Source of the DNA: Desulfomonilia bacterium
Lineage (GTDB): Bacteria > Desulfobacterota > Desulfomonilia > UBA1062
Length of the DNA stretch: 64,000 nt
Direction: 5' to 3'
Assembly (NCBI GenBank): GCA_963664325.2
Contig: CAXXDQ010000007.1
Coordinates: forward strand, 800,001-864,000
Part shown: positions 1,518-31,279 of the stretch, in pieces
Layout: the number at the start of each line of letters is the position of its first letter
How positions within the stretch are numbered: the first letter of the stretch is position 1
Position numbers and translations under genes: made by a program
Notes under the pieces: generated by a model
What the model was told of the DNA's origin: nothing
The model's input: the letters and a program-made list of their open reading frames with translations, nothing else
The model's database searches: none

Positions 1518-2447
1518 ATGGTTGAAAAAACAAAATATATTTCAATAATGTCAGTTATTCTCCTCATCTTGACTGCGTCACCTTTGTGCATGGCGGGAGA
1601 GGTGATAACAGATGCGGCAAGGCAATGGGCCAAAGAAGCCGTCAACAAGGAAAAGTCCCTTTCATCCGAGACTGCAGGAAATACCGTGGCCGTACTCAAC
1701 TTCAAGAACTCCTCCGATGACGCAATACTGAATCCTTTGCAGAAGGGTTTTGCCTTCATGCTGATGACGGACCTGGCGTCTGTGCCCGACATACAACTGG
1801 TTGAAAGGGTGAAGCTTCAGGCCCTGGTCGAAGAGCTCGACATGGGAGCGTCAGGCATCGTCGAAAGCGATTCCGCCCCAAGGATGGGCAGGCTGTTGAG
1901 GGCTAATTACCTCATAGGCGGTGAACTGAAGCCGTCAGGCGCCGGGGGTATAGACGTGGGTTCATTCCTCCTGGGCGTGTCAAAGAACAGCATATTGGGC
2001 CAGCCGAATGCGAACGGCAGCTTGGATGAGATATTCGACCTGGAGAAAAAAATTCTTTTTGCCATGATCGACCAGCTGAAAATCAGTCTTACCGAAGATC
2101 AGAAGACTGCTTTGAAAAAGCCCCTTACAACGAATTTCAAAGCCTTATACTACTTTTCAAAAGGCATTGACAGCAGCGACCGGGGAAATTACCAGCTGGC
2201 CCAGATCTATTATAACCAGGCTGTTGCTGCAGATCCTCAATTAAAAGCGGCATCTTCGGCAAGGAATGAACTTATCAGGATGAAGCTTGCGCCGGCAAAG
2301 CCCCGAGAAGCAGCCGTCGTAGGACAGATGGAAGCCCAGAACTCAGGCTCGGCGAGCCTGAAACAGAACAACTCCACATTCAGGGAGCTGAATCCGTACC
2401 AGATTGAAAAAGGTCACGGCTCAGGACAGGTGAAGGTGTCATGGTAG
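1518..2447 (+). CDS. Secreted CsgG/FlgO-like domain protein with C-terminal TPR
   Basis: N-terminal signal peptide; VAVLNF...VERVKLQALVEELDMGASG...MGRLLRANYLIGG is a CsgG/TolB-N-like pattern; TPR-like ALYYFSKG...AQIYYNQAVAADP. Confidence 0.75.
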   Translation: MVEKTKYISIMSVILLILTASPLCMAGEVITDAARQWAKEAVNKEKSLSSETAGNTVAVLNFKNSSDDAILNPLQKGFAFMLMTDLASVPDIQLVERVKLQALVEELDMGASGIVESDSAPRMGRLLRANYLIGGELKPSGAGGIDVGSFLLGVSKNSILGQPNANGSLDEIFDLEKKILFAMIDQLKISLTEDQKTALKKPLTTNFKALYYFSKGIDSSDRGNYQLAQIYYNQAVAADPQLKAASSARNELIRMKLAPAKPREAAVVGQMEAQNSGSASLKQNNSTFRELNPYQIEKGHGSGQVKVSW

Positions 2448-2470
2448 GCAATCTGAAAGGAGGTTATTTT

Positions 2471-3841
2471 ATGGCGCACTATTGCAGAATTGCCATGCTG
2501 ATGCTTATCGTTCCGATATTCTTCTTCTGCTCATGCAGCAGCTCTTCCAAAGGCGATACCCGAAATGACGCCACAGGCTCAGTCAGTTTTTCAATTGATG
2601 TCGAAGAGAGCAGCCCGGCGGCCGGATCAATAAATATGGCTGCCGTTGATTGCAGCAGGATGAGAATCGATACGGTTGTAGCGGAACTGAGAGACAACCG
2701 GAACAACCTTATAGCGACTGGCGGGCCTTGGGCTTGCAGTACAAGACAGGGAACCTTGAGCGCCATTCCTGCCGGCGAGGGATATACTCTGATAATCATG
2801 ATGAATGATTCAGACAATGACGTCCGTTATCAGGGATTCGTGTACGGCATTATAGTTCCCGCAGCCGGGACTGCCGACGCAGGCACAGTTACAGTGATTC
2901 CGAAGAACAACCCTCCCTTGATAACAGAGATCAGAGGGAATAACCGTGTTACAGGCGGATCGGGGACAATGCAGCTTGAAGTCATAGCAAACGACCCTGA
3001 CGGCAACAACCTGACATATTACATGACCGACCTCCCCAAAAGCCAGGAGACCGGTTACTTTTCCGGCGCCTCATTCGATCCTGATACGCATGTATTCACA
3101 TGGAACACCTCGGATTATTATTATGAAACCGGAGAATATTTCGTCTGGTTCATCGTAACGGATGACGGTGTGCCCAGAAGAAGCGCATGGAAAAGGTGCA
3201 AGATATTTGTCGACCCTGTCGGCTCGGCAACCCCTGACACGCAGCTTGTCTTAAATACCGACAGCGATACAAACGAGGCGGCCGGAAGAAAGTACGCCAC
3301 TGCTGGTGAACAGTTCAGCATGCAGCTGAAAGACACTTCCTCAACTTTGCATTCAGGGCTCAAGTTCTCTATGGAGCCTCTGATAGGTGTTCTGAATGAA
3401 ACATCGGGACTCTTTACATGGACGCCAGGCACAAGCGATATCGGGAACCAGCTGCTGATTTTCTATATTGAAGGCGGAGTTGCATCCGCATACAGAAGTG
3501 ACTGGAAAAAAATCCTTGTGACTGTCGGAACGGGCAATGTCTGCCCCCTTGCAGAACCTATCGGAATCAGAAGGGTGATGGAGATAAATCAGTCATATGA
3601 ATTCTATGTCACCGCTGAAGACCCGGACAGCGAAAACCTGACATTTTACGCTGCCGGCGGATACGACAAATATTACAACCCCTTCGAATATGGCGCGCAA
3701 TTTGATGCGGATACGCATAAATTCTCCTGGACACCGCCTGCTTCGGCACTAGAGTACGGCACCTTCGGTGTCTTGTTTACTGTTACGGACAGCTCAGGGG
3801 CGAGTGACTTCTGGCCGACCTATATCGATGTGATAGAGTGA
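2471..3841 (+). CDS. Lipoprotein with tandem Ig-like/cadherin-like (He_PIG-type) repeats
   Basis: GGAGG RBS before ATG 2471; lipobox-like FFCSC followed by a Ser run; repeated NxPP...AxDPD.xLT.Y...GAxFDxDTHxFxWxP modules. Confidence 0.7.
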   Translation: MAHYCRIAMLMLIVPIFFFCSCSSSSKGDTRNDATGSVSFSIDVEESSPAAGSINMAAVDCSRMRIDTVVAELRDNRNNLIATGGPWACSTRQGTLSAIPAGEGYTLIIMMNDSDNDVRYQGFVYGIIVPAAGTADAGTVTVIPKNNPPLITEIRGNNRVTGGSGTMQLEVIANDPDGNNLTYYMTDLPKSQETGYFSGASFDPDTHVFTWNTSDYYYETGEYFVWFIVTDDGVPRRSAWKRCKIFVDPVGSATPDTQLVLNTDSDTNEAAGRKYATAGEQFSMQLKDTSSTLHSGLKFSMEPLIGVLNETSGLFTWTPGTSDIGNQLLIFYIEGGVASAYRSDWKKILVTVGTGNVCPLAEPIGIRRVMEINQSYEFYVTAEDPDSENLTFYAAGGYDKYYNPFEYGAQFDADTHKFSWTPPASALEYGTFGVLFTVTDSSGASDFWPTYIDVIE

Positions 3842-3842
3842 G

Positions 3843-4979
3843 ATGAGAATGAAGATAAAAATTATAATCTTAACGTTGATTCTGACTGGTCTTGCTTCGG
3901 CAGTGCTCCCTCTATATGCTTCTGAAACCGGCTTCAATAGCGGCCTGATGTTCAATACATGGAAAGACGACGATTCGGACAAAGGCTTCCAGACCGCAAT
4001 GCCCATTGAACTGTCCACCGACTTTCATGGTGTCAACCTTGATCTCCTGAATGCCTTCGTCTATACATGGGTGAATCAGAAAGATACGCCGAACGCCAAC
4101 CTCGGCAATTTCCTTGATACCAAAATTAATGCCTCCTACCAGCTTCAGGACGTTATTCCGGTCAATATTCTTTTCGGGCTCGGACTCAATCTTCCTACGG
4201 GAACAACCGACCTGTCTCAAAGACAGCTGATACTTGTTGCGGACCCGGACCTTATGCCGTTCACGACATTCGGGGAAGGCTTTAATGTCAATCCGTATAT
4301 CACCCTGTCAAAACAATGGGAAAAGCTCGTTGTCGGTATAGGCGCAGGTTATTCATACCGGGGGAAATATGACTATTCAGTCTCAACCCAGGATTTCAAG
4401 CCCGGTAACCTTTTAACCGCTTCAGCCGAGGCCTCCTACGATTTCACAGACAGCATCCATGCAGGCCTTTTCGGCGAATATGCAAACTACGGCACCGATA
4501 CCGTGGACGGTGACGACTATTACAAGGAAGGCGACCTGTTTGTAATAGGACTTGGAGCAGGGTATTCCCGGCCCTCATGGAAGCTGGACATCAATCTTGC
4601 AGGGCTCAAAAGGAATAAAAGCGAGTTTCTGACCAGCACACAGATACTTGAGCCTGAGGCGAAGAACAGCCACGGTATCGAGTATGATGCTGGTGTTGCA
4701 TACAAATACTTTCTGAACGAACTGACAGCATTCGGTGCTGATATCGATCTTGCCTATCTCGGCAAGAACGGCTACCCGAGCGATTCCCCTTACTATATCG
4801 GCAACCGCACCAAGGTTGCAATCGGCGGCGGAGTCGACAGGAAGTTCATGGATAACCTGAAGGGCAATGCGTCATTGAGCCTCTTCACGATCAAGGAAGA
4901 ACAGGACTGGGAGCATCCTGACGGTTCCAGGACATATTACGGCGGAACTTTAACCGCATCGATCAGCTACACGTTCTGA
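3843..4979 (+). CDS. Outer-membrane beta-barrel protein (MetA-pathway/SphA transporter-like)
   Basis: Signal peptide; alternating amphipathic strands rich in G/Y/F; GLGLNLPTG motif; ends in ISYTF with the terminal Phe beta-signal. Confidence 0.7.
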   Translation: MRMKIKIIILTLILTGLASAVLPLYASETGFNSGLMFNTWKDDDSDKGFQTAMPIELSTDFHGVNLDLLNAFVYTWVNQKDTPNANLGNFLDTKINASYQLQDVIPVNILFGLGLNLPTGTTDLSQRQLILVADPDLMPFTTFGEGFNVNPYITLSKQWEKLVVGIGAGYSYRGKYDYSVSTQDFKPGNLLTASAEASYDFTDSIHAGLFGEYANYGTDTVDGDDYYKEGDLFVIGLGAGYSRPSWKLDINLAGLKRNKSEFLTSTQILEPEAKNSHGIEYDAGVAYKYFLNELTAFGADIDLAYLGKNGYPSDSPYYIGNRTKVAIGGGVDRKFMDNLKGNASLSLFTIKEEQDWEHPDGSRTYYGGTLTASISYTF

Positions 4980-4988
4980 GAAAGGTAT

Positions 4989-5016
4989 AAGGCGGGAGAA
5001 CCTGATTGCCCGCCTT
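4989..5016. terminator. Hairpin between convergent operons (possible bidirectional terminator)
   Basis: AAGGCGGG (4989-4996) pairs with CCCGCCTT (5009-5016), just after the beta-barrel stop and facing the convergent operon. Confidence 0.45.
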
Positions 5017-5068
5017 CCTGAGATGTTTTCTACAATGAACGAATTCCATTATGGGCGGCTTTAATTCT

Positions 5069-5581
5069 TTACATCAGCCCATCGGCGGCTTCAGCTGCCG
5101 CTTTTACCCATGAATTTACATCCCCGGCCTTGACTGTCTTTTTGGCGGTTTTCAATACCCTGCCCGTCTCGACATCAACAAGCCTTAAATCAAGCCTCAT
5201 GCTGCCTCCTGATACAAGGTAACCGCCGAACACCATCCGCCTCGCGCCAAGCATTCTGCCGACCTTGAGCCGTACGGACTCATCCGTCAATTCCGAACTG
5301 CCCAGTTTTAATTCCTGAAGCACGCTGAGCAGTTTCTGCCTTTCAATGACCTGAACTCCCGGTTTTGTTGAAAGCCTGCTTACTATCTCAGATGAAAGAA
5401 GCCCTCCAAGATCGTCTCCGGACGAATCATCGGGGCTTAAGTTTTCGATGTCGAGAACAGCTATTGTTAACGGAACAGCCTGTTTTGCTGTCGTTGCGCA
5501 ACCGGGAAGGCCTGTTGTCAGCAGGCATGCAACCGACAACAGGCATACAGCCCATAAATTATTTATTTTTCCTGTCCGCAT
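5069..5581 (-). CDS. CsgG/HfaB-like lipoprotein
   Basis: Probable start ATG 5581 (MRTGKINNLW...GLPGC lipobox); IAVLDIEN...VIERQKLLSVLQELKLGSS...VGRMLGARRMVFG...LRLVDVETG. ORF track start is 5614. Confidence 0.75.
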   Translation of the reverse strand: MRTGKINNLWAVCLLSVACLLTTGLPGCATTAKQAVPLTIAVLDIENLSPDDSSGDDLGGLLSSEIVSRLSTKPGVQVIERQKLLSVLQELKLGSSELTDESVRLKVGRMLGARRMVFGGYLVSGGSMRLDLRLVDVETGRVLKTAKKTVKAGDVNSWVKAAAEAADGLM

Positions 5582-7508
5582 CGATCGTCTCAATAATCTT
5601 GTCATCCGTGACAACCGGCCGTTCCTGCCTTGTTATCCTTGCATTTGAGAAATCGAGTTCCGTGCCGGTAACCTCTATTTGACCCACTATTTTAGGGGAG
5701 GCCTTAAGGATTTTACCCTTGTATTCAGTAGTGGGCTGCTCCTCAATGATATTGAATTTGGTGCCCGTAACCACACCCTGGTTTGAGCCTACGTTTATCG
5801 TCAGGTCGCCGTCCTTATTGGCGACAACAAAACCTTTTACAGGATATTCCTTGATTACGGCGGCCAGGAGTTCCCGGTTAAGGCTGTTTAAATTGTCCTT
5901 GAACCTCTCATCGGTGTCTATATCCTGATTAATGACCTTTGCAATTCCTGTGGTTTCGGTATCGACAAGCCTCATTCTGAGCAGCGATACATCGGGCAGG
6001 TTGAACACTATCCCGGTGCCGATAACACGTGCCGCCAGTATCTTGCCGAGCTTCAGCTGCGTTTCCTGATCAGCCAGCCCCGATGAACCAATTTTGAGCT
6101 CTTCAAGCAGCCTGTCCATGATAATGCGGTCCACGACCTTTACCCGGCCCGAACTGTTCAGCTTATCAGCCAGATCGGTTGCCAGTACCGTCGAGATGCC
6201 GTCTCTCTCTCCGAGCACACCCTTTTCCTCAAAATCCACGAAGGCCAGAGTTGTAATCGGTGTTGTCCATTCATCCTTAAGCGTTTTCTTGTCCGCCTTT
6301 TTCTGCTCCTTGAACTGCTTTACAAGGTCATCTACATACTTGTTTATACGCTCCCTGCGTTCCACATCCTTCTGGAGTTTGACCATTTCGGTTGCACTGG
6401 CCGCCAGAATCTTTGTATAGGCATCCCCTTTTATCGCCGCCTCCCCTTCTTTGTAGGATTCAATCGCTTTGTCCAGATCACCCTCTTTTTCATAGGTGAC
6501 ACCCTTGTTTGCCATGGCCTCGACATAATAGGGATCAAGTTCTACGGCCTTGTTATACAGTTCACGGGAACCCTTGTAATCTTTGGCCCCGGCATAGAGA
6601 CGTCCCAGCTTGTTATAGGCAAGAGCCTTCTGGAACGACTCCCCTTCCTTCTTCTGCGCTGCCTTTGCATATTCGGCCTGAGCCTCTGTCTTCTTGTTTT
6701 TTGCATAAAGGATATCAGCCTTGACCACGCTCGCATAAGATCTTTCCGGGGCAATTTTTTCAACTTCTTCAGCCAGTTTATAGGCCCCGCCGGAATTTCC
6801 CTTTCTAATATAAACAGCAGCCAGACCCTCTTTCCCATAAACAGCAGAGATGCCGTTTCTCTTTGAAAGACCTGTAAAAATCTTTTCCGCATCGTCGATT
6901 CTGCCCGCTTTCAGCGCTGCATAGCCTTTTGTCATGAGGGCTTTTGCGTCATCCGGTGTCTTTTTTATGGCCGCATCACTCAAGGCCACGGCCAGAAACG
7001 TCTGCCTCTGCTGAAGTTTTCTTTCCGCCAGCCTGTCCAGAATAGCGCTTGCTGTCTTGCCGCCTCCCTGAATGCTGTCAATGACCTTCTGGCCGGGACC
7101 GATCACACATACTGTCGGAAGTATGTTTTTTGCATCATAGGCCTCGCTGACCTTCGCATTATCGATAAGAACGGGAAACGAGAGCCTGCTGCTTTTCGCA
7201 AAGGCGGCCGCCTTGTCCTTATGCGATGCGGTTACGGCCAGGACATTAAGGTCAGCGTCCTTGTATTTTTTTGCAATCTCGTCAAGGCTAATGAGTCCCT
7301 CTACAGATGACTGGGATGAAGGATTGAAGAAATAGACAATGGTCATTGAACTTGCCTTCATGGCTGCCAGGTCATATTTTTTGCCTTGGACATCGGAAAG
7401 CGTGAATCCCGGGGCAATACTGCCTTCGATCTGCTTAGCCAGGATAGTGCCTGTTAACATGAACGCCAGGATCAGAACCAACCAAGTTATTCTTGTAATC
7501 GTTTTCAT
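5559..7508 (-). CDS. Secreted fusion: redoxin/AhpC-TSA-like fold (no CxxC) + TPR array + CsgG-like domain + FlgT-C-like domain
   Basis: GGAGGG RBS before ATG 7508; signal peptide; APGFTLSDVQGK redoxin start; TPRs such as AYNKLGRLY and AMANKGVTY; CsgG-like VVDRIIMDRLLEELKIGSSG...MRLVDTET; C-terminal LTINVGSNQGVVTG. Confidence 0.75.
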   Translation of the reverse strand: MKTITRITWLVLILAFMLTGTILAKQIEGSIAPGFTLSDVQGKKYDLAAMKASSMTIVYFFNPSSQSSVEGLISLDEIAKKYKDADLNVLAVTASHKDKAAAFAKSSRLSFPVLIDNAKVSEAYDAKNILPTVCVIGPGQKVIDSIQGGGKTASAILDRLAERKLQQRQTFLAVALSDAAIKKTPDDAKALMTKGYAALKAGRIDDAEKIFTGLSKRNGISAVYGKEGLAAVYIRKGNSGGAYKLAEEVEKIAPERSYASVVKADILYAKNKKTEAQAEYAKAAQKKEGESFQKALAYNKLGRLYAGAKDYKGSRELYNKAVELDPYYVEAMANKGVTYEKEGDLDKAIESYKEGEAAIKGDAYTKILAASATEMVKLQKDVERRERINKYVDDLVKQFKEQKKADKKTLKDEWTTPITTLAFVDFEEKGVLGERDGISTVLATDLADKLNSSGRVKVVDRIIMDRLLEELKIGSSGLADQETQLKLGKILAARVIGTGIVFNLPDVSLLRMRLVDTETTGIAKVINQDIDTDERFKDNLNSLNRELLAAVIKEYPVKGFVVANKDGDLTINVGSNQGVVTGTKFNIIEEQPTTEYKGKILKASPKIVGQIEVTGTELDFSNARITRQERPVVTDDKIIETIDADRKNK

Positions 7509-7552
7509 CTTTCTCCCTCCTGTAAGGGTGGATTGTGACATCAATTTCTTGC

Positions 7553-8761
7553 TTACTTTAAATTAGGTTTATTCACCTCGGGTTCCAGTGTTATTTTAAG
7601 GGGCTGTTCACCCTTTTTGTCAAGGTTTACCTGCGCCTCCCACTCCAGATAACCCGGCATGCTTATCTTCACCTCATGCTCACCGAGGCTCAGCGGTATC
7701 TTAAGCGGAGATGCCCCTTTTGATTTGCCGTCGATAAACACCTGTGCGCCGACCGGTTCGCTGTCCAGATTTAAAACAGCTTCAGCCGAAGGATTCTGCT
7801 TAACGGGCCCAAGGGCAGGCCTGTCTTTTTTGCCCGACATGACTAAAATTGCCGCTGCCGCCACCAGTACAGCCATGGCGATAATTACTGCCGCCGCGAT
7901 TCGTCTGCCGGGTTTTCCCTTACGGGGAATCATCCCGGCCTCAAGGAGCTGATTTCCCCTTGTTGCTGCAAGCGCTTCAGCCATATCCCTGCCTGTCTGG
8001 TATCTCAGTGCAGGGTCCTTGGAGAGGCTCTTCATGATGACATCTGAAAGGGCCCTGGGCATATCCGGTTTCAAATCCGCCAGGTCGACGGGGACGGCTG
8101 TTGTAATTGAATTGAAGATCGACCCCAGGTTCTCACCCTTGAAGGGTTTAACCCCCGATACAAGCTCATACAGGATAACCCCAAGGGAAAAGAGGTCTGA
8201 CCTGCCGTCCACTTTTTTGCCCAGGACCTGTTCTGGCGACATGTAGTTCGGTGTCCCGAGTATCTCGCCCGCCTGTGTCTGCTGTGTCGCTTCGGTATCG
8301 TCTATATGCGCAATCCCGAAATCGGTTATCTTCACGTGGCCATCTTCCGTAATCATTATATTGGGCGGTTTGATGTCCCTGTGGACTATCCCCTTCCCGT
8401 GCGCATAATCAAGGCTTGAGGCAATTTCAATACCCAGCTCCGTTATTTCATCATATGAAGGTGTCTTGTCCCTTGCATGAACATTGAGCGGCGAACCCTT
8501 CAGCAATTCCATCGCTATGAAAACAGTATTCTGGTCCTCACCAACGTCATAGACAGTAACTATATTGTTGTGGGCGAGCCTGCCTATGGCCCGTGCCTCC
8601 TTGAGAAACCGCTGGACGAAATCCGCGCTTTCGACCCTGTCGGGACGCAATATCTTGAGGGCAACTTCCCTGTTTATGTTCGGATCATGGGCGAGATAGA
8701 CCATGCCCATCGAGCCCCTGCCGAGTTCCCTGATGATTTCGTAACGTCCGTATTTCATCAC
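7553..8761 (-). CDS. Hanks-type Ser/Thr protein kinase with one TM helix and an extracytoplasmic PEGA domain
   Basis: GRGSMGMV glycine loop, VALK, HRDIKPPN, DFG and GTPNYMSPE; hydrophobic IAAAVIIAMAVLVAAAAILV; PEGA-like LDSEPVGAQVFIDGK...GEHEVKISMPGY. Confidence 0.93.
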   Translation of the reverse strand: MMKYGRYEIIRELGRGSMGMVYLAHDPNINREVALKILRPDRVESADFVQRFLKEARAIGRLAHNNIVTVYDVGEDQNTVFIAMELLKGSPLNVHARDKTPSYDEITELGIEIASSLDYAHGKGIVHRDIKPPNIMITEDGHVKITDFGIAHIDDTEATQQTQAGEILGTPNYMSPEQVLGKKVDGRSDLFSLGVILYELVSGVKPFKGENLGSIFNSITTAVPVDLADLKPDMPRALSDVIMKSLSKDPALRYQTGRDMAEALAATRGNQLLEAGMIPRKGKPGRRIAAAVIIAMAVLVAAAAILVMSGKKDRPALGPVKQNPSAEAVLNLDSEPVGAQVFIDGKSKGASPLKIPLSLGEHEVKISMPGYLEWEAQVNLDKKGEQPLKITLEPEVNKPNLK

Positions 8762-9732
8762 TCCTGCCTTTCCTTGATAAAAAGCAAAACCGTATCAAGG
8801 GGTGTGATATAGGAATAATCAAGCCTTCCCCTGAGTCTACCCTTGATGATCCCTGCAAAGACACCGTTTTCCGTGAAAACCGGACCGCCGCTGTCCCCGG
8901 GCCTGACTTCCATCTGCGCCTGCCAATAAACCTGTCCGTCCACTTTCCTGGAGTTGCCGCTTATTACACCGCTGATTATCTGGCGGCTGTTTTTTTCCGC
9001 ACATCCGAAAGCGATCACCTTCTGAGAATCATAAAGATTCGATGCGCCCTTCAGGATATTGACTTCCGTCTTGAAGCCGTATCTGCAGTCAATGAATGCA
9101 AGGTCTTTTTTCCTGTCAATTTTTATCAGCCTGCCGCTCAGGACCTGCCCGTTTTTTGTAAATACACGTATTGCAGCCCGGTTGCTGAGATAATGGGCGG
9201 TGCACAATATCAGCCCCTTTTTGTCTGCTACAAAGCCTGTGAGATTGACTGTCTCTCCCTGCAGGACAGCTTCTATGCATACGACGCTTTCCGAGTTGCC
9301 CGGGTTTGCCGCCCCGATATCAGTCCCGGCCGGATCATCATATTCCCTAGAAATCTTTTTCACCTTGAGTTTGTCGACATAGCCTGCAAGATAATCCGTC
9401 AGTTCAGATGTATCGTTATTGCCTTGCTTGAGCGGCACGACGGCTACAAAGGAAGCCATCGGCGAATCTGTGGTTATTCTTACCTGAATATCCCCATTCT
9501 TTCCGGACGCCTTTATGAGCGAGATATCACGGCTTTCCTCTATTGTGATTTCATAACCCTTTTGTCTCATCCAGGCTTCAATAATGTCTGACGTCTCAGA
9601 CCTCGGCAGGGCGATATGATAGGGTTTTGCATTATCCAGGGCAGAAATAACCGTCGGGAACACAGGTAAAGATAAAAATATCAGAATTGCAACTATAAGA
9701 TCTTTTTTCAGGCCTGAAGCCGGATCACTCAT
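8758..9732 (-). CDS. Exported trypsin-like (S1) serine protease with N-terminal extension
   Basis: Catalytic triad motifs CTAH, DLA and GDSGGP; hydrophobic N-terminus; start at 9732 gives an ATGA overlap with the upstream gene. Confidence 0.85.
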   Translation of the reverse strand: MSDPASGLKKDLIVAILIFLSLPVFPTVISALDNAKPYHIALPRSETSDIIEAWMRQKGYEITIEESRDISLIKASGKNGDIQVRITTDSPMASFVAVVPLKQGNNDTSELTDYLAGYVDKLKVKKISREYDDPAGTDIGAANPGNSESVVCIEAVLQGETVNLTGFVADKKGLILCTAHYLSNRAAIRVFTKNGQVLSGRLIKIDRKKDLAFIDCRYGFKTEVNILKGASNLYDSQKVIAFGCAEKNSRQIISGVISGNSRKVDGQVYWQAQMEVRPGDSGGPVFTENGVFAGIIKGRLRGRLDYSYITPLDTVLLFIKERQE

Positions 9733-10097
9733 GACCTCAACCTTGCACCGCATTTGGGGCAATCTTTTATGAAATCTTTTCCGCCTCTCTGTGAATTTGA
9801 CGCACCATCCTTCAGTTGCTCGCCGCAGGCAGGGCATCTCCAGAACTTTTCCCTGGCAACGCGCTCGAACACACCCAGAAGGATTAAAAGTATTACGCCT
9901 CCTGAAAGGATTATACCCTTTACATTCAGGGCGCCGGTCCCGCTGCCATAGTATTTGTAAACAAATATGGATATGAGGACATATGCCGCGACAAGCACCA
10001 GCATTCCCAGATGCGAAACGTTAAGCAGTATCTTTTGAGAAGCAAACTTTTCAATCACCTGTTCTTCCTGCGGGGTTTTCTTGGGGTTTTCGTTCAT
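9729..10097 (-). CDS. Small two-TM membrane protein with C-terminal zinc ribbon
   Basis: Two hydrophobic segments, then CPACG...CPKCG; overlaps both neighbours by 4 bp. Confidence 0.7.
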   Translation of the reverse strand: MNENPKKTPQEEQVIEKFASQKILLNVSHLGMLVLVAAYVLISIFVYKYYGSGTGALNVKGIILSGGVILLILLGVFERVAREKFWRCPACGEQLKDGASNSQRGGKDFIKDCPKCGARLRS

Positions 10098-10933
10098 AAA
10101 CCTGATACCGTCCTTTCTATTAATTCCTTTCCATTCTCAAAAAAGACTCTCTCATAAAATTCATCTGACAGATCATAGCTCAAGAGTGTTTCAATTTCAG
10201 ATTCCCTGGGCATTATGAGATTGGGAAAATCGGAACCGTACAGTATTCTCTTCCTGTTGCGCTCCAGGGCCGGTTTTCCAAGATCATAGCTGCCTTTACC
10301 TTCAAATTCCTTGAAAAACGCAAAGGCCGTGTCAAGGTACATGTTTGGATTTTCATCAAGGGCCTTCATAAAACCATTATATTCATATGCGCCCATGTGT
10401 GCAACAATTGCAGGCAGTTCAGGATATCGTTTCATAAGCTTTCTGAAATGATCGAGTCCCACATACTCGTTTCCGACCGGCCCGTTTCCCGCATGCAGAA
10501 GCAGGTATTTCCCCTTGTCCATAACCATCTCATACATGGGGAAAAGCCTTTCATCATGGGGATAGAACTTCTGCACCAGCAGTTGAAGCTTTATGCCGAG
10601 AACCCTGGGATGCGAAAGCGCCCTTTCGGCAATCTTAACGGCATTTTTATCCCCGGGATGATAGGCCGCGAAACAGTAAAGCCCTTCGAACTCATCGAGA
10701 ATGCCCAGGTTCCATTCGTTAAGTCCCTCTGCAACACCTTCTCTGTGAGCATAGTTGGAGTATACAATTTCTCCGACACCCCTTTCATGAAGGTACTCGA
10801 TGCACCGGGCATGGTACATCCTGTAAAGAACATCCCACTTGTAATCGCTTATGAACGCCTTCCATATTGCATCGAACATCCGGTCCGGAAAAAGGTGGAC
10901 ATGAAAATCTATAATCTTCCCAGGAATGGCCAT
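10094..10933 (-). CDS. Amidohydrolase family protein (Amidohydro_2)
   Basis: IDFHVH, GIKL, LHAG, AHMG and LYGSDFP metal-binding TIM-barrel motifs. Confidence 0.88.
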   Translation of the reverse strand: MAIPGKIIDFHVHLFPDRMFDAIWKAFISDYKWDVLYRMYHARCIEYLHERGVGEIVYSNYAHREGVAEGLNEWNLGILDEFEGLYCFAAYHPGDKNAVKIAERALSHPRVLGIKLQLLVQKFYPHDERLFPMYEMVMDKGKYLLLHAGNGPVGNEYVGLDHFRKLMKRYPELPAIVAHMGAYEYNGFMKALDENPNMYLDTAFAFFKEFEGKGSYDLGKPALERNRKRILYGSDFPNLIMPRESEIETLLSYDLSDEFYERVFFENGKELIERTVSGL

Positions 10934-10939
10934 ATTCCC

Positions 10940-11674
10940 TTACATATCTCCCGATATCCGGACCAGCACGACGGTAATATTATCTTTCCCGCCCCCCGCC
11001 TTCGCCAGGTCGATCAGGCCCGATGCCATCTCCTCAAGAACGGAATAATTATTCATGCATTTTTCAATGGCCGCATCATCGGCCATGTCGGTCAGACCGT
11101 CGGAACACAGGAGATAAACATCACCCTTGACCGCCTTTGATTTGATTATATCAAGGCTGAAATTCTCCTCGACTCCGACCGCACGCAAGATCACATGCCG
11201 CATCTTGTGCTTCTTCGCCTCCTGGGCAGTAATTGCCCCCTGGTCTATCTGCTCCTGGATCAGTGAATGGTCTCTGGTTACCTGTTTCAGCATGCCGCTC
11301 CTTAACCTGTAGGTCCTGCTGTCGCCGACATGGCCTATTACAATAAGATCGTCCGACAGGCTGAGAAGCTCTGCCGTCGTACCCATTCCCCTGTGATCAG
11401 GGAAAAGCATGATATGTTCGCGTATATTGCCGTTAGCCGTTATGTAAGTCTGCTGGACAGGAAATACGGGGTCACCCTTATCACCCTGCACCCACTCTTC
11501 ATAGATATCAACCGCTGCATCCACGAAGATCCTGCTGGCAATCTCTCCTGCCGCAGCACCTCCCATGCCGTCGGCCACAACGCATAAGTTAAGGTCTTCC
11601 CTTATGAGATATGAATCTTCGTTATTGGCTCTTTTCAGTCCGGGATCGGTTTTTCCGAATGTGATTATCTTCAT
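10940..11674 (-). CDS. PP2C-family Ser/Thr phosphatase (Stp1/PppA-like)
   Basis: RANNEDS, VADGMGG, HVGDSR, LCSDGL and GGKDNIT motifs. Confidence 0.95.
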   Translation of the reverse strand: MKIITFGKTDPGLKRANNEDSYLIREDLNLCVVADGMGGAAAGEIASRIFVDAAVDIYEEWVQGDKGDPVFPVQQTYITANGNIREHIMLFPDHRGMGTTAELLSLSDDLIVIGHVGDSRTYRLRSGMLKQVTRDHSLIQEQIDQGAITAQEAKKHKMRHVILRAVGVEENFSLDIIKSKAVKGDVYLLCSDGLTDMADDAAIEKCMNNYSVLEEMASGLIDLAKAGGGKDNITVVLVRISGDM

Positions 11675-11735
11675 ATATTACACGACTCATACCACTTGAC
11701 AGGCTGCTGATTCAAGTTGTACTTGAGGCAATATT

Positions 11736-12683
11736 ATGAAAATGCCCCCTATAATCACGGTTCAGCTGATCCACCTTCAGGGGCCGATGAAAGGCCAGAT
11801 CCAGGAATTCTCTGAAAACACCATATCCATAGGCCGCCAGGCCGACTGCAGCGTGCAGTTCCCAAAGGATATGACAACGATATCCCGCCTGCATGCCGAA
11901 ATTGAGCGAGACGGCAACCGCTTTAAGCTCACCGACAAAAGCGCGAACGGCACTTTCGTCAATGGCAAGAAAATAACTGAAACCTACCTTAAAGACGGTG
12001 ACGTCATAATGTTTACGGAAGGCGGACCGAAAGTCAGCTTTATTGCCGCAATTTCCGAAGCGCCTGCTGAAACCGCACCGATTATTGCTCCTCTACAACC
12101 AAAGCATGAGCCGGTGATTACATCGCCGATACCCGCGCCTGTACCACCGGTCTTGACACAGGAGCCTAAGGCGCAAAAACAGGCTTTTGTTCCACCGGTT
12201 CCGGAACCGCCCAGACCGGTTCCCGAAACGCCAGTGCGGGCAGCCTTTGACGGTGCTCAGGAAAAAGTTCAGGTTCCGCTGATGATACAGTTCGGCCCGG
12301 CACTGCGCTCATACAAAGAGCTGCCGGTCACAATCGGGAAAAGCCCTTCAAGCGGATTTGTCATGGCGCATCCGGACATTTTGGAAAATCACGCGCAGAT
12401 ACTTTTCAGCCAGGGCGCATACAGAATAAGAGACCTTACAGGGAAAAACCTGATAAAGTTAAACGGCAGAACAATTGAGTTCGAGACGGCATTATCCACT
12501 AATGACGTTATACACCTGAGCCCGAACGGTCCTGCGCTGCGTTTCCTCGGCGAAGGAAGGCTCGCAGAGCACGAAGAAGCCACTGCTGAAGATGAAATAG
12601 CAGGGCCTTCAGTAACTCCCGCGCCCCATAAAGAAGAAAAATCAAAAGGCCTGAAAGGTTTCATGGATTTGTTCAAGAAATAG
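11736..12683 (+). CDS. Dual-FHA-domain protein with Pro-rich linker
   Basis: FHA1 is canonical (IGRQ...ISRLHA...SANGTFVNG); Pro-rich linker; FHA2 is degenerate (IGKS...LENHAQI...KNLIKLNG). Confidence 0.9.
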   Translation: MKMPPIITVQLIHLQGPMKGQIQEFSENTISIGRQADCSVQFPKDMTTISRLHAEIERDGNRFKLTDKSANGTFVNGKKITETYLKDGDVIMFTEGGPKVSFIAAISEAPAETAPIIAPLQPKHEPVITSPIPAPVPPVLTQEPKAQKQAFVPPVPEPPRPVPETPVRAAFDGAQEKVQVPLMIQFGPALRSYKELPVTIGKSPSSGFVMAHPDILENHAQILFSQGAYRIRDLTGKNLIKLNGRTIEFETALSTNDVIHLSPNGPALRFLGEGRLAEHEEATAEDEIAGPSVTPAPHKEEKSKGLKGFMDLFKK

Positions 12684-12839: not shown

Positions 12840-13442
12840 TTATTTTTTATTTTTAGCCGGATCATGCTTATCCACATCATTTATCGGTAAACCCTTTTGC
12901 TTCAAAATATAATCACGCAACAGAACACCAAAGACAGACATAATATCTTCTACTAAAAGACCGCGATTATAGGCTTCCTGTTTTACCACTAATAATTCAT
13001 TATCGTTAAGACATGATATCATTTTTTCTTTTGCGACACGCATTGATATCATTTGTATATCATAGGCATTGTTAGGCTTATCGGTCTCCACCTCCCTAAC
13101 AAGGTCATAAATACACCTATTCAAGATATCATTGCCGTTTATCTTTTTTACTATTTCTTTTCCAACTTCAGTCAACATTATTGGACTCATAGACGCCACC
13201 GGTCTTTTTGAACCCAAGGTATGATCATATATCAGATCAATCTTGGTTTCTATTTTAATAACCTTTTCGGCAAGATTTTCATTATGCTTAATTTTTTCAT
13301 CAAGAAATTTGAATGTCGTTTTCCATTTACCTGTCCATTTACCTGTTTTATATAGACCAGAACATACAATAATCACAAAGATTATTAATACGAAAACACT
13401 ACTATTTAGTTGTTTAATAAGTTCTAATAATATCGGCCACAT
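12840..13442 (-). CDS. Hypothetical AT-rich protein with N-terminal TM helix (cassette passenger)
   Basis: 200-aa ORF; hydrophobic VFVLIIFVIIVCSGL followed by a coiled-coil-like segment; lies inside the inverted repeats. Confidence 0.7.
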   Translation of the reverse strand: MWPILLELIKQLNSSVFVLIIFVIIVCSGLYKTGKWTGKWKTTFKFLDEKIKHNENLAEKVIKIETKIDLIYDHTLGSKRPVASMSPIMLTEVGKEIVKKINGNDILNRCIYDLVREVETDKPNNAYDIQMISMRVAKEKMISCLNDNELLVVKQEAYNRGLLVEDIMSVFGVLLRDYILKQKGLPINDVDKHDPAKNKK

Positions 13443-13593
13443 ATAGTCCTGTTCAAATCAAAAGAAGGATGTAAATACAAATTATTTTGTTAAAAATAAA
13501 TATATTAGTAATCTCCTAATCCCATGGTCTGAAAATTTTGTCAACTACCCACCTGTCAGATTTGTTGGAACTAATACACTTCAAAATTACAGA

Positions 13594-13824
13594 TTAAGTT
13601 TTTATCCAACGCGCCTTAGCCGCCTTCTCTGCTATCTCCTTGCGCCTTTCAGGAGATAGCTTATCCTTTCTGGCCTTGCCACCCTTAAGCCCCCCAAGTC
13701 TCCCCAGCGCAACAGCAGCAGGGTTCTTTTCTGTTTTGGTCTCTGTTGGTACTTGTCCTGTAGCTTCTGCTACGATCTGGAAGGCAAGACTATTAATGTC
13801 GATGAGTCTTTTCTTTTTAGTCAT
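13594..13824 (-). CDS. Small basic KGG-motif protein of the type associated with IS1-like elements
   Basis: KNPAAVALGRLGGLKGGKARKDKLSPERRKEIAEKAAKARW; starts about 50 bp inside the right inverted repeat. Confidence 0.75.
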   Translation of the reverse strand: MTKKKRLIDINSLAFQIVAEATGQVPTETKTEKNPAAVALGRLGGLKGGKARKDKLSPERRKEIAEKAAKARWIKT

Positions 13825-22034: not shown

Positions 22035-22090
22035 GCCGGTATCACCCTAACCTGAGGTTGCTTTGACCCGAGACTTCATCACCTTATGTT

Positions 22091-22717: not shown

Positions 22718-22732
22718 AAGCGCTCCCTTAAA

Positions 22733-23955: not shown

Positions 23956-23987
23956 AATCTCTCCAATCGGGCTTCATTTTCCTTTTT

Positions 23988-24770: not shown

Positions 24771-24819
24771 TTTTTCTCCGTTTTCCGCTTTAAAGGCTGC
24801 GATTTAATCTGAACAGAAA

Positions 24820-25623: not shown

Positions 25624-25705
25624 CCGGTTTTCCTCCCTGAACTTATTTGAATGTTGCTGCCGGCGATGGGTGACATATAAATCAAACTGCTGTCCCCTGC
25701 AGATT

Positions 25706-26101
25706 CTATGGCGCAAGGAGCAGCACCTTGGTCTGGCTCGGCGCCACACGCACGCCGGGGCAGTTTGTGGAATTCTGCAAAGAAGCGCTTGTAAGCTTTG
25801 TTGCAGGCATGCCTCCCACAAGCACGGTAAATGATGCTGTAAGGTGCTTTGACGGCCCCATAACCATGCCTGATGCAACGCCGGTATTAACCCCTGCATT
25901 GTCTCCGTTGGTAAGCGGGACCTGAGTGCTCATGTTATGGGCCGGTGCGCACATCATGAGGACCTTGTATGCGGCGGGCACGCCCATCGGTCCGTTGGCA
26001 ATATTCGGATAAGGCGTGGGCACCGGGCCCGCAGGTGTCGGTGTCAGACAGACATCGGGAAATCCCGTATCCATTCCGCCCATTTGGGTGTTGGCAAACA
26101 T
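25706..26101 (-). CDS. DUF4150 PAAR-like T6SS spike-tip protein (no toxin extension)
   Basis: FPDVCLTP...PVPTPYPNIA, GDNAG...GVASG and SQTKVLLL; AGGAGG RBS. Confidence 0.9.
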   Translation of the reverse strand: MFANTQMGGMDTGFPDVCLTPTPAGPVPTPYPNIANGPMGVPAAYKVLMMCAPAHNMSTQVPLTNGDNAGVNTGVASGMVMGPSKHLTASFTVLVGGMPATKLTSASLQNSTNCPGVRVAPSQTKVLLLAP

Positions 26102-26117
26102 ATTTTTTCCTCCTAAA

Positions 26118-26300
26118 ACAGGGCGTGATAACCTTGCATGCCCTTGTCGCTCCTCACCTCGTCATTGCGGCATACGCTAAAAGTATGTCTCATTCCTCTG
26201 CTTCGTCGCTTCCCGGCTGCTTTGTTCTGACGCCCTGCATGTTTATTTTTCCAATTCTCCTTGCATCTTCGGCATCATTTTGAATGCAAAATAGAATTGG
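26118..26300. repeat. Palindromic intergenic repeat (MITE/REP-like) with related copies near 40254-40522 and 41061-41121
   Basis: Internal inverted repeats CAGGGCGT...ACGCCCTG and CCAATTCT...AGAATTGG; 26257-26297 matches 40326-40366 in reverse with 6 mismatches over 41 nt. Confidence 0.6.
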
Positions 26301-26422
26301 TAATTTTTAACATCTTCAAAATCTCACTCCAGTTCGCATCGTGGTCTCTTCTGTTCCATTTTTGCTTAACAGCTTAACAGCTTTTTCTCACCACTCACCA
26401 CTTATAACTTATAACTATCTTT

Positions 26423-27076
26423 TCATCCCAAATGAATCTGGTCGCCCTCTATCTTGACCAGTTCATCCGCCGTGACAAGGGCATTATGTCCTTTCAGGCT
26501 CATGTTCTTTTCCGCCCTGTAATCTATCTGATTGCTCCGCACCTGGTCAATTTCTTCAACAACCCTGTAGCTGCGTTTGACCTTCTGGCTGATGCGTTCG
26601 GCAATTGTGTCGAATATCCCGCCTACAAACTTGAAAGCCCCGGCCTGCGCCAGAACCTTGCGGCCGACATATGAAAGCCGGTCAATGAAAACATGCCCCT
26701 TATCTGAGCGGACGGCAAACACGGATGATGTCATCGATATGTCTCTGGCAGACACCAGATCAACCCCCTGTGATGAAACGACGCTGAAGCGGCCTTTCGG
26801 GACCCCCAGATGAAGGTCGCCGTCAACGGTTATTCTTGTGGCCGATGCATTCCCCTGTTCCAGAACTGCTATGATAAAAAGGCCTTCATTGAGATCACCG
26901 GCCACCAGAACCCTGTCTCCTGCGGCAGGCTCGACAAGACAGCTCACCGCACGCCTGACAAAAAGTTCTCCATATTCACAATCGACAGTGACGAAATCTC
27001 TCTCACGACCGGTGACAATACCGTCTGCCTGGATATGATAACTCTGCCTGGCTGCCTGATTCAATGCCTGTTTCAT
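26423..27076 (-). CDS. DUF3540 family T6SS accessory protein
   Basis: RRAVSCLVEPAAGDRVLV, VEEIDQVRS and C-terminal VKIEGDQIHLG. Confidence 0.88.
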   Translation of the reverse strand: MKQALNQAARQSYHIQADGIVTGRERDFVTVDCEYGELFVRRAVSCLVEPAAGDRVLVAGDLNEGLFIIAVLEQGNASATRITVDGDLHLGVPKGRFSVVSSQGVDLVSARDISMTSSVFAVRSDKGHVFIDRLSYVGRKVLAQAGAFKFVGGIFDTIAERISQKVKRSYRVVEEIDQVRSNQIDYRAEKNMSLKGHNALVTADELVKIEGDQIHLG

Positions 27077-27187
27077 AATTAACCCCTTTCTACTATAGCT
27101 AATGAGCCGATAAGCCACAATGCTGTCAAGTAAAACCCTCCTCCTGACAGCCCGACGGCTTACAAGCCTGCCAGCTGATTTTACAGC

Positions 27188-28237
27188 TTAATAGACCGGT
27201 TCCCAGTTTTCCGCTTTTAACAGTTCAGGTTCATTACCCAGTGCCGAAGCCCGATCCGTAATAACCGCTTTTTGATCTGAAATCCCATGCAGCTTCGCCC
27301 TGAACATTTTTGCCCCATAGAGATTCGCCGCTCTCAGGTCTGCATGTGAAAAGTCTGCATAGGTCAGGTCGGCATTTACAAACCTGGTCTGCACGCATTT
27401 TGCTTTTGCAAGAATGCACTGCCGCATGTCAGCACCTGATAAGTCCGCAAGACCAAGATCCGCATCAATGAAAATCGACTGGTAGAGTTCCGCATCACGG
27501 AGAACCGTCTCATTCAGCATGGCTTCAACAAAAAGGGCATTGTTCGCCCTGGCACCCGCCAGGATCGCCTTTTTGAGGTCGGCACCCTTGAAATTGCACT
27601 GGGTGAGGTTGGCCCCTCTCAAGTCACAGCCTGAAAGGTCCGCACCCATGAATTGTGTAAGGGAAAAATCCTGGCCTGCAAGGCTCAGTCCTGCAAGGTT
27701 TGCTTCAATAAGAACCGCCATTCTCAAGCTGCTTCCGGCAAGTCTTGCCGTTCTCAAATCGGCCTTCACCAGTACAGTCTGCGGCAGAACAGTCCCAGAA
27801 AAATCAATCCCAGCCGTTTCGACTTCAACAAATGCGGTGCGTTCAAGGTCAGCACCGCAGAATCTAGCATATTCAAGCCTGCTCTGGGCTATTGCAGCAA
27901 TCCTTAAATCAGCCCCTGTAAAATCCGCAGACGAAAAATCACACTGGCTTATCTGGGCTGCCTTCATATCCGAGCCCATAAGGTTCGCCGATTTGAATGA
28001 ACACATATGCAGGCTCACAAGGTGAAATCCGGCCTTGCTCAGATCGGAATTGTCAAATCCGCACCTTACAAGGATCGACTCCTTGAATGATGCACCGTTC
28101 AGGCTGGTCCTGCTGAAATCACAATCTTCGAAGATACCGCCTGACAGGTCTGCACCCGAGAGGTTGAGCCCGGCAAGACTGGCCTTTGAAATCTGCTCGC
28201 CCCGGCTTATCATGCTGCACAGCGTTTCACGGTCCAT
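27188..28237 (-). CDS. Pentapeptide-repeat protein (T6SS TagB-like)
   Basis: Almost entirely A(D/N)Lxx repeats; located in the vgrG cluster. Confidence 0.9.
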   Translation of the reverse strand: MDRETLCSMISRGEQISKASLAGLNLSGADLSGGIFEDCDFSRTSLNGASFKESILVRCGFDNSDLSKAGFHLVSLHMCSFKSANLMGSDMKAAQISQCDFSSADFTGADLRIAAIAQSRLEYARFCGADLERTAFVEVETAGIDFSGTVLPQTVLVKADLRTARLAGSSLRMAVLIEANLAGLSLAGQDFSLTQFMGADLSGCDLRGANLTQCNFKGADLKKAILAGARANNALFVEAMLNETVLRDAELYQSIFIDADLGLADLSGADMRQCILAKAKCVQTRFVNADLTYADFSHADLRAANLYGAKMFRAKLHGISDQKAVITDRASALGNEPELLKAENWEPVY

Positions 28238-28239
28238 AG

Positions 28240-30891: not shown

Positions 30892-30894
30892 ATC

Positions 30895-31266
30895 CTATTG
30901 CCCTTTCGTGCCGACATCCACAATTGCCACATTTTCAGGTTTCTTGGAGTCATATTTGACCCTGAGGACTGCCCCTGGTTTGTAGCCGGCAAGCTTAAGA
31001 GGCGAAACAGGCAGGGTTATTTCGGCATTGAAATCCTTTCCGGCCGAATCGGTTACGACGAGCCTGATATTCACAACCGGATTCGTATTGTGACGCCTGC
31101 CGGTATCGGTCACGTCCACAACCCTGGCGTTTGCCTCTATGCCGCTGCTGAGCACCGCTCCCCTCTTGAAATGGTTCCAGATTACTGGACCTACTGTTAC
31201 TGCAAGCACAATGCCCAGAATAATTATAAATATCAGGTTTTCCGTCAGCGTCGTCTTTCCTGCCAT
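30895..31266 (-). CDS. Small membrane-anchored DUF3592-like protein
   Basis: N-terminal TM; GIEANARVVDV.DTG...NTNPVV...PGAVLRVKYD..KP.NVAI; GGAGG RBS. Confidence 0.65.
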   Translation of the reverse strand: MAGKTTLTENLIFIIILGIVLAVTVGPVIWNHFKRGAVLSSGIEANARVVDVTDTGRRHNTNPVVNIRLVVTDSAGKDFNAEITLPVSPLKLAGYKPGAVLRVKYDSKKPENVAIVDVGTKGQ

Positions 31267-31279
31267 GTCCCACCCTCCC

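Follow-up and report, generated by a model that had tools for sequence, protein, structure and literature searches.

A serine/threonine kinase, phosphatase and FHA module with a distinctive envelope half, probably linked to type VI secretion in Desulfobacterota

We describe here a locus of eleven genes, at positions 1518-12683 of a 64,000-nucleotide stretch from a Desulfomonilia bacterium (GenBank assembly GCA_963664325.2, contig CAXXDQ010000007.1, positions 800,001 to 864,000; hereafter the window). Its operon A encodes three envelope proteins (A1 to A3), its operon B runs from the PP2C phosphatase B1 through B2, B3, the serine protease B4 and the PEGA kinase B5 to the envelope proteins B6 and B7, and a single gene (C) encodes an FHA protein. 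Judging from gene content and its distribution among genomes, the locus is probably a post-translational control module for its host's type VI secretion system (T6SS), belonging to the PpkA/PppA/Fha (TagE/TagG/TagH) threonine-phosphorylation pathway. On our best reading the cytoplasmic logic is a known one, and the envelope half is new and stands in place of TagQRST.

The module follows the T6SS across genomes

Two sets of genomes were surveyed, 41 relatives of the source genome and a phylum sample of 401 genomes in which B6 orthologues were called at E<1e-95. Among the relatives, B6, a full-length orthologue of the PEGA kinase and TssC/VipB are found in the same 13 genomes, and none of the three in the other 28. 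This pattern even splits two genera, separating G014 from G022 and G024 from G016. In the phylum sample, TssC/VipB is present in 18 of 18 B6-positive genomes versus 28 of the 383 others. Within the family of the source organism, ten of twelve T6SS-negative genomes have no Hanks kinase match at E<=1e-20.

The linkage is also physical, T6SS genes adjoining the module in G012, G014, G020, G021, G024 and G390. The distance between the FHA gene and T6SS core genes is about 14.5 kb (G021), about 13.7 kb (G012) or about 12.6 kb (G390), and a second TssB/C pair is found near the module in two genomes (at about 11 kb, G024; at about 8.6 kb, G020). The contig of G014 that carries TssC ends, 12.8 kb from it, in an N-terminal piece of the kinase gene, and in G024 the kinase and FHA genes stand beside T6SS genes, B6 and B7 being on another contig. 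The two are about 290 kb apart in G368. The T6SS core of the source genome (TssA, B, C, E, F, G, J, K, L, M, Hcp and TagF) is on the same contig as the locus; no FHA gene was found inside this core cluster. TagF is present in every T6SS cluster inspected. In the window itself, a vgrG/PAAR cluster is located about 13 kb from the FHA gene, and in G012 the gene types of this cluster directly follow the FHA gene.

The preliminary description of the window had presented the locus as an autonomous system with no named relative. We abandon this view because of the exact co-variation with the T6SS in the 41 relatives, the T6SS genes beside the module in several genomes and the vgrG cluster within 13 kb in the window.

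A conserved core in nine families

Synteny was assessed in the window and 18 further B6 loci, nine from the same family and nine from eight other families of the phylum, all window proteins being mapped onto each fetched locus. A core composed of the FHA gene, divergent from PP2C, protease, PEGA kinase, B6 and B7, is syntenic in these 19 genomes of 9 families. B7 comes directly after B6 in all 19 loci and the kinase precedes B6 in 17 of the 18 that have upstream DNA. Where DNA upstream of the kinase exists (15 loci), the protease is always found there and PP2C in 13; the FHA gene lies within 13 of the 19 stretches fetched. Outside the genus, core proteins are mostly about 45-56% identical to those of the window, identity being lower for three of them: 26-35% for the protease, and as low as 40% for the FHA protein and 43% for B7. 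The core contains no cell-wall synthesis gene in the 19 loci. That the locus genes belong together, as had been proposed from their co-location, is borne out by this order kept across nine families, with operon A nearby in 13 of 19 loci. The gene order thus conserved supports a coherent envelope-to-cytoplasm Ser/Thr signalling unit.

Two genes formerly counted as parts of the system fall outside this core as lineage-specific additions. The amidohydrolase B2 is complete only in the source genome; C-terminal remnants of 30-45 residues are left in two congeners (L023, 11505-11645, and L024, 11523-11612), and the other 16 loci gave no match. Because it is intact in one genome and reduced to short remnants in two congeners, B2 appears to be a recent gain followed by decay within the genus. 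The small membrane protein B3 is genus-specific, being present in three of the 19 loci (the window, L023 and L024).

Two core genes of other genomes carry in-frame stops, a TAA in the B6 orthologue of G013 (C149:272-2227) and a TGA in the kinase orthologue of G008 (C2:62277-63443). These may be sequencing errors, decay or recoding.

Organization of the locus

The map proposed earlier, two convergent operons plus a divergent FHA gene, holds for all eleven open reading frames, in position and strand (Table 1). According to the list of open reading frames, operon A occupies 1518-4979 on the + strand and operon B extends over 11674-5069 on the - strand. Three of the 4-bp overlaps claimed for operon B are indeed there (10094-10097, 9729-9732 and 8758-8761), and B1 and the FHA gene diverge from an interval of 61 bp. 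Two starts deserve a comment. The protease start as first listed (9837) is over-extended, since 9732 matches the orthologues and yields an ATGA overlap with the upstream gene; the true start of B7 is likely the ATG at 5581. The genome also encodes dsrA, matched above the curated cut-off, and homologues of its proteins bear names of the Desulfobacterota type.

Table 1. Genes of the locus and of the T6SS spike cluster, in window positions
Feature	Position	Strand	Description	Evidence
A1	1518..2447	+	secreted, TolB-N/LpoB/CsgG-N-type domain at N-terminus, helical C-terminal part	Pfam CsgG 32.6 bits
A2	2441..3841	+	probable lipoprotein with Ig-like (He_PIG) domains	He_PIG 28.2 bits
A3	3843..4979	+	outer-membrane beta-barrel, C-terminal YTF, 378 residues	AlphaFold2 (AF2) model and homologue families
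B7	5069..5614	-	small outer-membrane-type lipoprotein, TolB-N/LpoB/FlgO-type domain	CsgG 44 bits, FlgO 28.3 bits
B6	5559..7544	-	secreted, 661 residues: thioredoxin fold, TPR, coiled coil, FlgT-like two-domain C-terminus	Pfam AhpC-TSA, TPR, CsgG
B5	7553..8761	-	Hanks-type Ser/Thr kinase, one transmembrane helix, PEGA	Pkinase 181 bits, PEGA 56.3 bits
B4	8758..9732	-	trypsin-like serine protease, membrane-anchored or secreted	Trypsin_2 65.2 bits
B3	9729..10097	-	small protein with two transmembrane helices, C-terminal CxxC...CxxC Zn-ribbon	sub-threshold Zn-ribbon matches
B2	10094..10933	-	Amidohydro_2 enzyme inserted in operon B	Amidohydro_2 76.5 bits
B1	10940..11674	-	cytoplasmic PP2C phosphatase	PP2C_2 45.6 bits
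C	11736..12683	+	FHA protein: N-terminal FHA, Pro-rich linker, degenerate second FHA	FHA 109 bits, two stretches
T6SS spike/auxiliary cluster	25706..33493	-	vgrG, DUF2169-pentapeptide, pentapeptide, DUF3540, PAAR-like	Pfam
vgrG	31280-33493	-		Phage_GPD 316 bits with Gp5_trimer_C, Phage_base_V
DUF2169-pentapeptide	28240-30891	-		DUF2169 248 bits, Pentapeptide
pentapeptide	27188-28237	-		Pentapeptide
DUF3540	26423-27118	-		DUF3540 212 bits
PAAR-like	25706-26101	-		Tox-PAAR-like 127 bits

The cytoplasmic half: kinase, phosphatase and FHA protein

The domain set expected for writing, erasing and reading a phosphothreonine mark, already noticed in the preliminary description, is complete and its catalytic motifs are intact. 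In the proposed pathway B5 would play the part of PpkA/TagE, B1 that of PppA/TagG and C that of Fha/TagH. B5 is a transmembrane kinase with a PEGA domain, as announced, and is the sole Pkinase match above cut-off in the genome. Its motifs Lys36, HRD, DFG and GTPxYMSPE are invariant in 11 orthologues, and its periplasmic part is a PEGA domain of 94 residues. The best NCBIfam match, PknB_PASTA_kin, reaches 313.6 bits versus a cut-off of 450; the ectodomain being a single PEGA and not PASTA repeats, B5 is not a PASTA kinase of the PknB/Stk1 type. The phosphatase B1, likewise correctly recognized and encoded in the same operon as the kinase, is the sole PP2C_2 match in the genome.

The FHA protein had been called dual. 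Two FHA stretches are indeed present, but in orthologues the second is devoid of the conserved Arg and Ser of the phosphothreonine pocket. The phosphothreonine-binding residues GR, SxxH and NG are invariant across orthologues in FHA1 and not so in FHA2. The best NCBIfam match is TagH VI_FHA, at 72.6 bits. FHA domains occur in only two proteins of the genome. The other one is a 300-residue adenylate/guanylate cyclase-FHA fusion (L055:6834-7736, that is G000 contig C7:709834-710736) whose gene adjoins one for a calcineurin-like phosphoesterase. Through it the same kinase could have a second reader, one with a cyclic-nucleotide output.

The trypsin-like nature of B4 is confirmed as well, and its catalytic triad (His180, Asp210 and Ser281) is invariant in 8 orthologues. 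Scans of B4 gave no PDZ match and all HtrA/DegP/DegS-type models scored far below cut-off; its N-terminal domain is family-less, with no usable match in the ESM Atlas. As for the two additions, B2 is an amidohydrolase as predicted, and the Zn-ribbon attributed to B3 is visible as two CxxC pairs, all Zn-ribbon profile matches staying below threshold.

The envelope proteins B6 and B7

Three proteins of the locus (A1, B7 and B6) had been described as CsgG-like. All three exceed the Pfam CsgG cut-off of 20.8 bits (32.6, 44 and 25.1 bits, respectively), but only the N-terminal, TolB-N/LpoB-type half of the profile is matched: of its 210 positions, 6-97 are covered by A1, 9-97 by B7 and 36-98 by B6. 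The membrane-spanning hairpins are, as we take it, in the unmatched second half. In fold, the CsgG-like domains belong to the TolB-N/LpoB/FlgT type; they are not CsgG channels. The LpoB model itself scores below cut-off in the Pfam scan of the locus proteins. B7 carries the lipobox LPGC (Cys39), whose Cys is invariant in 12 of 12 orthologues. Searched against PDB sequences, the B7 profile finds CsgG only (E 0.1), and the profile of the B6 C-terminus finds no match at E<=1.

B6 is the most composite protein of the locus. Its AhpC-TSA domain agrees with the redoxin proposed before, but the CxxC is replaced by SRPS. At this position no Cys is found in 16 of 17 orthologues, and a single one in L030. 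The ResA model gives 46.3 bits versus a cut-off of 170, and neither the CxxC nor the peroxidatic Cys of a thiol-disulfide oxidoreductase is present. Because the CxxC is lost and 16 of 17 orthologues have no Cys there, the thioredoxin domain of B6 is, by its sequence, predicted not to be a redox enzyme.

A FlgT-C domain had also been assigned to B6. In the window protein it stays below cut-off (17.9 versus 27 bits), but many orthologues carry FlgT_C and the fold search agrees. The C-terminal 242 residues were modelled with moderate confidence (predicted local distance difference test, pLDDT, 72.4) as a TolB-N/LpoB-type domain followed by a beta domain. This model is matched best by FlgT (3w1e, E 1.7e-11) and the flagellar LPHT ring (8z5n, E 2.1e-12), with low TM-scores for the top matches (0.36-0.38, at most 0.39); TolB-N, LpoB, CsgG and PelC come next. 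About 65 clusters share the architecture of B6, including a protein of the cultured Desulfosarcina ovata.

Operon A, a semi-independent cassette

The translation of A1 shows a signal peptide. The TPR that had been attributed to this 309-residue protein is not retained, there being no Pfam TPR match and one TPR-like stretch by eye only. A2 is probably the Ig lipoprotein foreseen from the sequence, with a He_PIG domain and, in the translation, a Cys that comes after the signal sequence and precedes a Ser-rich tether. A3 gave no Pfam match of its own. It is nevertheless the beta-barrel that was suspected, the AF2 model being a confident all-beta barrel (pLDDT 94.7) and its homologues matching outer-membrane barrel families: among 42 scanned by Pfam, OMP_b-brl was found in 8, Phenol_MetA_deg in 7 and MipA in 6. 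The ESM Atlas yields nothing but generic barrels, and Foldseek retrieves generic barrels only (FadL, AlgE, porins, BcsC), with TM-scores up to 0.49 when normalized to the query and up to 0.56 when normalized to the shorter target CymA. The A3 family comprises 110 homologous clusters with names from several orders. A barrel of the Slam/DUF560 type (type XI secretion) was considered and rejected, as none of the families matched in the scan of these 42 proteins is DUF560; the term occurs in only one source name.

In 13 of the 19 loci, spread over several families, the stretch fetched includes A1 and/or A3; the other six, as fetched, show neither. A1 orthologues adjoin the core in L021, L023, L026, L027, L028, L031, L032 and L033. 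The arrangement varies, operon A being convergent in L026, L027, L031 and L033 and upstream on the same strand in L028 and L032. A2 is the variable middle gene, absent in L027 and represented by several tandem A2-like matches in L032. Moreover, the same genome carries on contig C3 a paralogue of operon A (L045:7650-12758) with no kinase nearby. It consists of an A1-like protein (313 residues, CsgG match, 57% identity), a 1003-residue DUF5122 beta-propeller in place of A2, and an A3-like barrel (377 residues, 44% identity). Because this second operon has a different middle gene and because the linkage to the kinase module is incomplete, operon A is a semi-independent outer-membrane cassette, often but not always linked to the kinase module.

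Comparison with known systems

According to a review (PMC13584744), the minimal threonine-phosphorylation pathway of the T6SS consists of tagE, tagG and tagH, and its upstream activators differ by taxon, with TagQRST in Pseudomonas and RtkS in Serratia. In other reports, the TagQ/TagR complex acts on PpkA (PMC13713981), TssW is an upstream activator of the T6SS in Acidovorax (PMC12607579) and the effect of TagF passes through Fha (PMC5995506). For Seep-SRB2, PMC10553843 mentions a cell-surface PEGA protein that is conserved and may bear on this module.

The present locus echoes the TagQRST-PpkA-PppA-Fha1 pathway of the Pseudomonas aeruginosa H1-T6SS in many respects. Both have a single-pass Hanks kinase, a PP2C phosphatase, an FHA protein, an outer-membrane lipoprotein and a periplasmic protein upstream, and a TagF in the T6SS cluster. 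The logic there, as PMC13713981 and PMC13584744 describe it, leads from an envelope event to the kinase, then to Fha and to T6SS assembly. Three marks of this pathway are found here: a transmembrane Hanks kinase with intact motifs, its cognate PP2C and genomic association with the T6SS. As to a fourth, an FHA protein of the TagH/Fha family, FHA1 has the canonical residues and TagH is the best match, at a score below cut-off. The differences concern mostly the envelope side. The kinase has a PEGA ectodomain; upstream stand B7 and B6 together with a serine protease and, in most cases, a barrel cassette of the outer membrane; of the two FHA domains in the FHA protein the second is degenerate; and the module is often detached from the T6SS core. 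The Pfam matches of the locus include no ABC-transporter domain of the TagS/T type, TagQ and TagR not having been searched for specifically. In TssW-PpkA-Fha of Acidovorax citrulli and RtkS-PpkA of Serratia, as described in these reports, taxon-specific periplasmic or outer-membrane partners likewise act on the PpkA ectodomain and start or place assembly. Compared by description only, those systems use a single accessory protein, whereas five to seven conserved envelope proteins are present here.

FlgT of the Vibrio flagellar H-ring provides the best structural match of the B6 C-terminus, with a TolB-N-like domain followed by a beta domain. However, B6 adds thioredoxin-fold and TPR parts, the genome has no flagellin and the TM-scores are low, as given above. 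In the model, the resemblance appears to be one of fold and not of membership in function. With CsgG, LpoB and PelC, the locus proteins share a small alpha/beta periplasmic fold, and B7 is a lipoprotein like all three. The CsgG matches stop at about position 98 of 210 and the genome encodes no curlin, so that none of these proteins qualifies as a curli channel. This agrees with the earlier remark that curli subunit and flagellar genes were lacking in the window: searched across the source genome, curlin (Curlin_rpt) and flagellin each gave 0 matches.

A possible mechanism and its implications

We infer which way the signal runs, what the kinase acts on and what the envelope proteins do as follows. 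Cell contact, damage to the outer membrane, an incoming attack or another change at the envelope would be reported by B7 and B6 and, in most genomes, also by A1, A2 and A3. The state of the envelope would thereby reach the PEGA ectodomain of the single-pass kinase B5, with the protease B4 as a possible gate or reset. By analogy with the known pathways, the kinase would phosphorylate a factor of T6SS assembly (the FHA protein itself, or else a membrane-complex protein that FHA1 then binds), and T6SS assembly would be nucleated at the marked site. B1 would reverse the mark and TagF, in the T6SS cluster, would act as a parallel brake.

We tentatively go one step further for the envelope half, which might be a new apparatus for recognition of a T6SS target or of damage. 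A FlgT-like periplasmic assembly of B6 and B7 tethered under the outer membrane and coupled to the A1-A3 surface Ig lipoprotein and barrel would detect contact or outer-membrane injury, and the protease would convert this event into activation or reset of the PEGA kinase. This bolder proposal has a minority chance of holding. If it does, an anaerobic sulfate reducer would fire its T6SS only at the touched site, and the control of secretion would have taken over both the fold of a flagellar-ring protein and a thioredoxin fold that is catalytically dead.

To our knowledge, the external triggering of the T6SS is understood in a few proteobacterial models only, each with its own upstream sensor, and we know of hardly any study of T6SS biology in the phylum of sulfate reducers concerned here. 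In the literature searched, supplementary tables excepted, no PEGA kinase, FlgT-like/TPR/dead-thioredoxin protein or trypsin-like protease is described as a T6SS accessory factor. The words TPR, protease and LpoB do not occur in the accessible part of the 2026 review of these factors (PMC13584744). If our proposal is correct, the locus would define a fourth and much larger upstream set beside TagQRST, RtkS and TssW, present in at least nine families. It would also provide a function-level hypothesis for the approximately 65 clusters currently annotated as 'TPR repeat protein/peroxiredoxin' or 'hypothetical', which extends to their lipoprotein, protease and PEGA-kinase neighbours. The module is often the sole Hanks kinase system in these genomes, so that a single clean genetic test is possible.

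Alternative explanations

Several observations weigh against a T6SS control module. The support consists throughout of co-occurrence and neighbourhood, and related genomes are not independent, which inflates the co-occurrence counts. In the source genome the T6SS core lies 116 kb from the locus. In the phylum sample, 28 of the 46 T6SS-positive genomes have no B6, as expected for an accessory regulator, and G399 (85% complete) has a partial B6 interrupted by TAG and no VipB match. The ectodomain of PpkA is of the vWA type, unlike the PEGA ectodomain of B5. The TagH VI_FHA match of the FHA protein is below its cut-off (120.25 bits) and its two-FHA architecture differs from that of Fha1. The presence of the cyclase-FHA protein means that the kinase may have other outputs, and C-terminal domains like that of B6 are also found in other architectures (about 1100 residues) with no kinase nearby. 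Finally, on a quick TssC tree, module-positive genomes fall in two canonical clades and are interleaved with module-negative ones. The module label changes 14 times on this tree versus a mean of 19.9 when shuffled, and the starred branches force at least four changes. We rejected the idea of a module tied to one T6SS lineage because module-positive rows occur in two TssC clades; it is tied to having a T6SS.

Alternatively, the envelope proteins could do something else than sense. B6 and B7 might form a structural or positioning brace or ring under the outer membrane, which would anchor the kinase and TssJLM in the manner of TssW and would not be a sensor of contact or damage. The closeness of the B6 C-terminus to FlgT and the LPHT ring, then to the ring-forming PelC and CsgG, would fit such a role, as would the lipoprotein nature of B7 in all orthologues inspected. 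The moderate confidence of the model, its low TM-scores and the T6SS-positive genomes without B6, which imply that there is no general structural need, speak against it. We give a structural role a minority chance, though it is quite possible and not exclusive. An appreciable, though still minority, chance must be left to the idea that operon A stands apart from the signalling path, as an outer-membrane cassette for the export or display of a variable surface protein that only tends to lie near the kinase module. The second copy on C3, with its DUF5122 middle gene and yet no second kinase in the genome, points in this direction, together with the breadth of the A3 family, the variable or absent A2 and the six loci with neither A1 nor A3 as fetched. 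On the other hand, linkage of A1 and/or A3 persists in 13 of 19 loci in different arrangements and several families, which argues for selection on it.

Two further readings question the link with secretion altogether. A general kinase system for envelope or cell-wall homeostasis, similar to PASTA kinase plus PP2C, could be hitch-hiking on a T6SS island. B5 and B1 are after all the sole Hanks kinase and PP2C of the genome, the best NCBIfam match of the kinase is a PASTA family, LpoB-like folds are among the structure matches and Kaur et al. 2020 (PMC7159879) count PEGA as one of the peptidoglycan-associating domains. This is unlikely, however: ten of the twelve T6SS-negative genomes of the family do without any Hanks kinase match, so the module is not housekeeping, and its core has no cell-wall synthesis gene. 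Module and T6SS are moreover retained together even where distance or a split separates them: at 116 kb (G000), at about 290 kb (G368), and with B6-B7 on another contig (G024). An autonomous and unnamed surface-to-cytoplasm relay, with the FHA protein and the protease as output and no relation to a secretion machine, would account for the complete write/erase/read kit, the envelope proteins and the lack of flagellin and curlin in the genome. It is very improbable in view of the exact TssC co-variation in the 41 relatives and of the T6SS genes adjoining the module. Control of the T6SS thus remains the explanation that we favour.

Genes around the module and the T6SS

Several genomes contain, between the T6SS core and the module, a second and strongly divergent TssB/TssC pair (about 31% identity to canonical TssC; L049:15282-16688, L050:2316-3716, L053:14708-16102 and L054:8070-9455). 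On the quick tree, 7 of the 8 rows of this divergent clade are module-positive. In other loci a gene of 523-538 residues beside the FHA gene (L017:13156-14727, L025:2199-3764, L027:13833-15398 and L030:4870-6483; absent from the source genome) has a VipA (TssB)-like N-terminus and a partial VipB (TssC), which gives it the look of a fused sheath-like protein. A second sheath-like gene as the true partner of the module was ruled out, since 9 of 28 module-positive genomes, the source genome included, have neither the divergent pair nor the fusion-like gene. Three large Pfam-less genes (about 779, 545 and 558 residues) lie between the T6SS and FHA genes in two genera (L018:818-6539 and L019:697-6369). 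Those of 545 and 558 residues are paralogues at about 35% identity, and the source genome has no relative of the three.

In the window, a low-GC (guanine plus cytosine) stretch at 12840-14000 (36.5% in 13001-14000 versus about 49% around) holds a family-less open reading frame of 200 residues. It sits exactly where the FHA gene of other genomes is followed by T6SS-related genes, and may be an insertion that separated the module from neighbouring T6SS genes.

TagAB of the Burkholderia-type set vgrG-TagAB-TagC-TagD is a pentapeptide-repeat protein, to which the DUF2169/pentapeptide genes of the window may correspond. In the same set, going by a table in PMC13584744, the window DUF3540 protein resembles TagC and the PAAR-like protein TagD. 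All these putative counterparts lie outside 1518-12683. After the spike cluster (21555-33493 on the - strand with the following genes) come a 359-residue protein with a Cache-type sensor domain (24820-25899), a family-less 260-residue protein (23988-24770) and an M15 D-Ala-D-Ala dipeptidase (23263-23955), all three being candidate cargo, effector or immunity genes. In the T6SS core cluster of the source genome, a cupin-GNAT acetyltransferase gene is found between tssE and hcp (L046:14330-15262).

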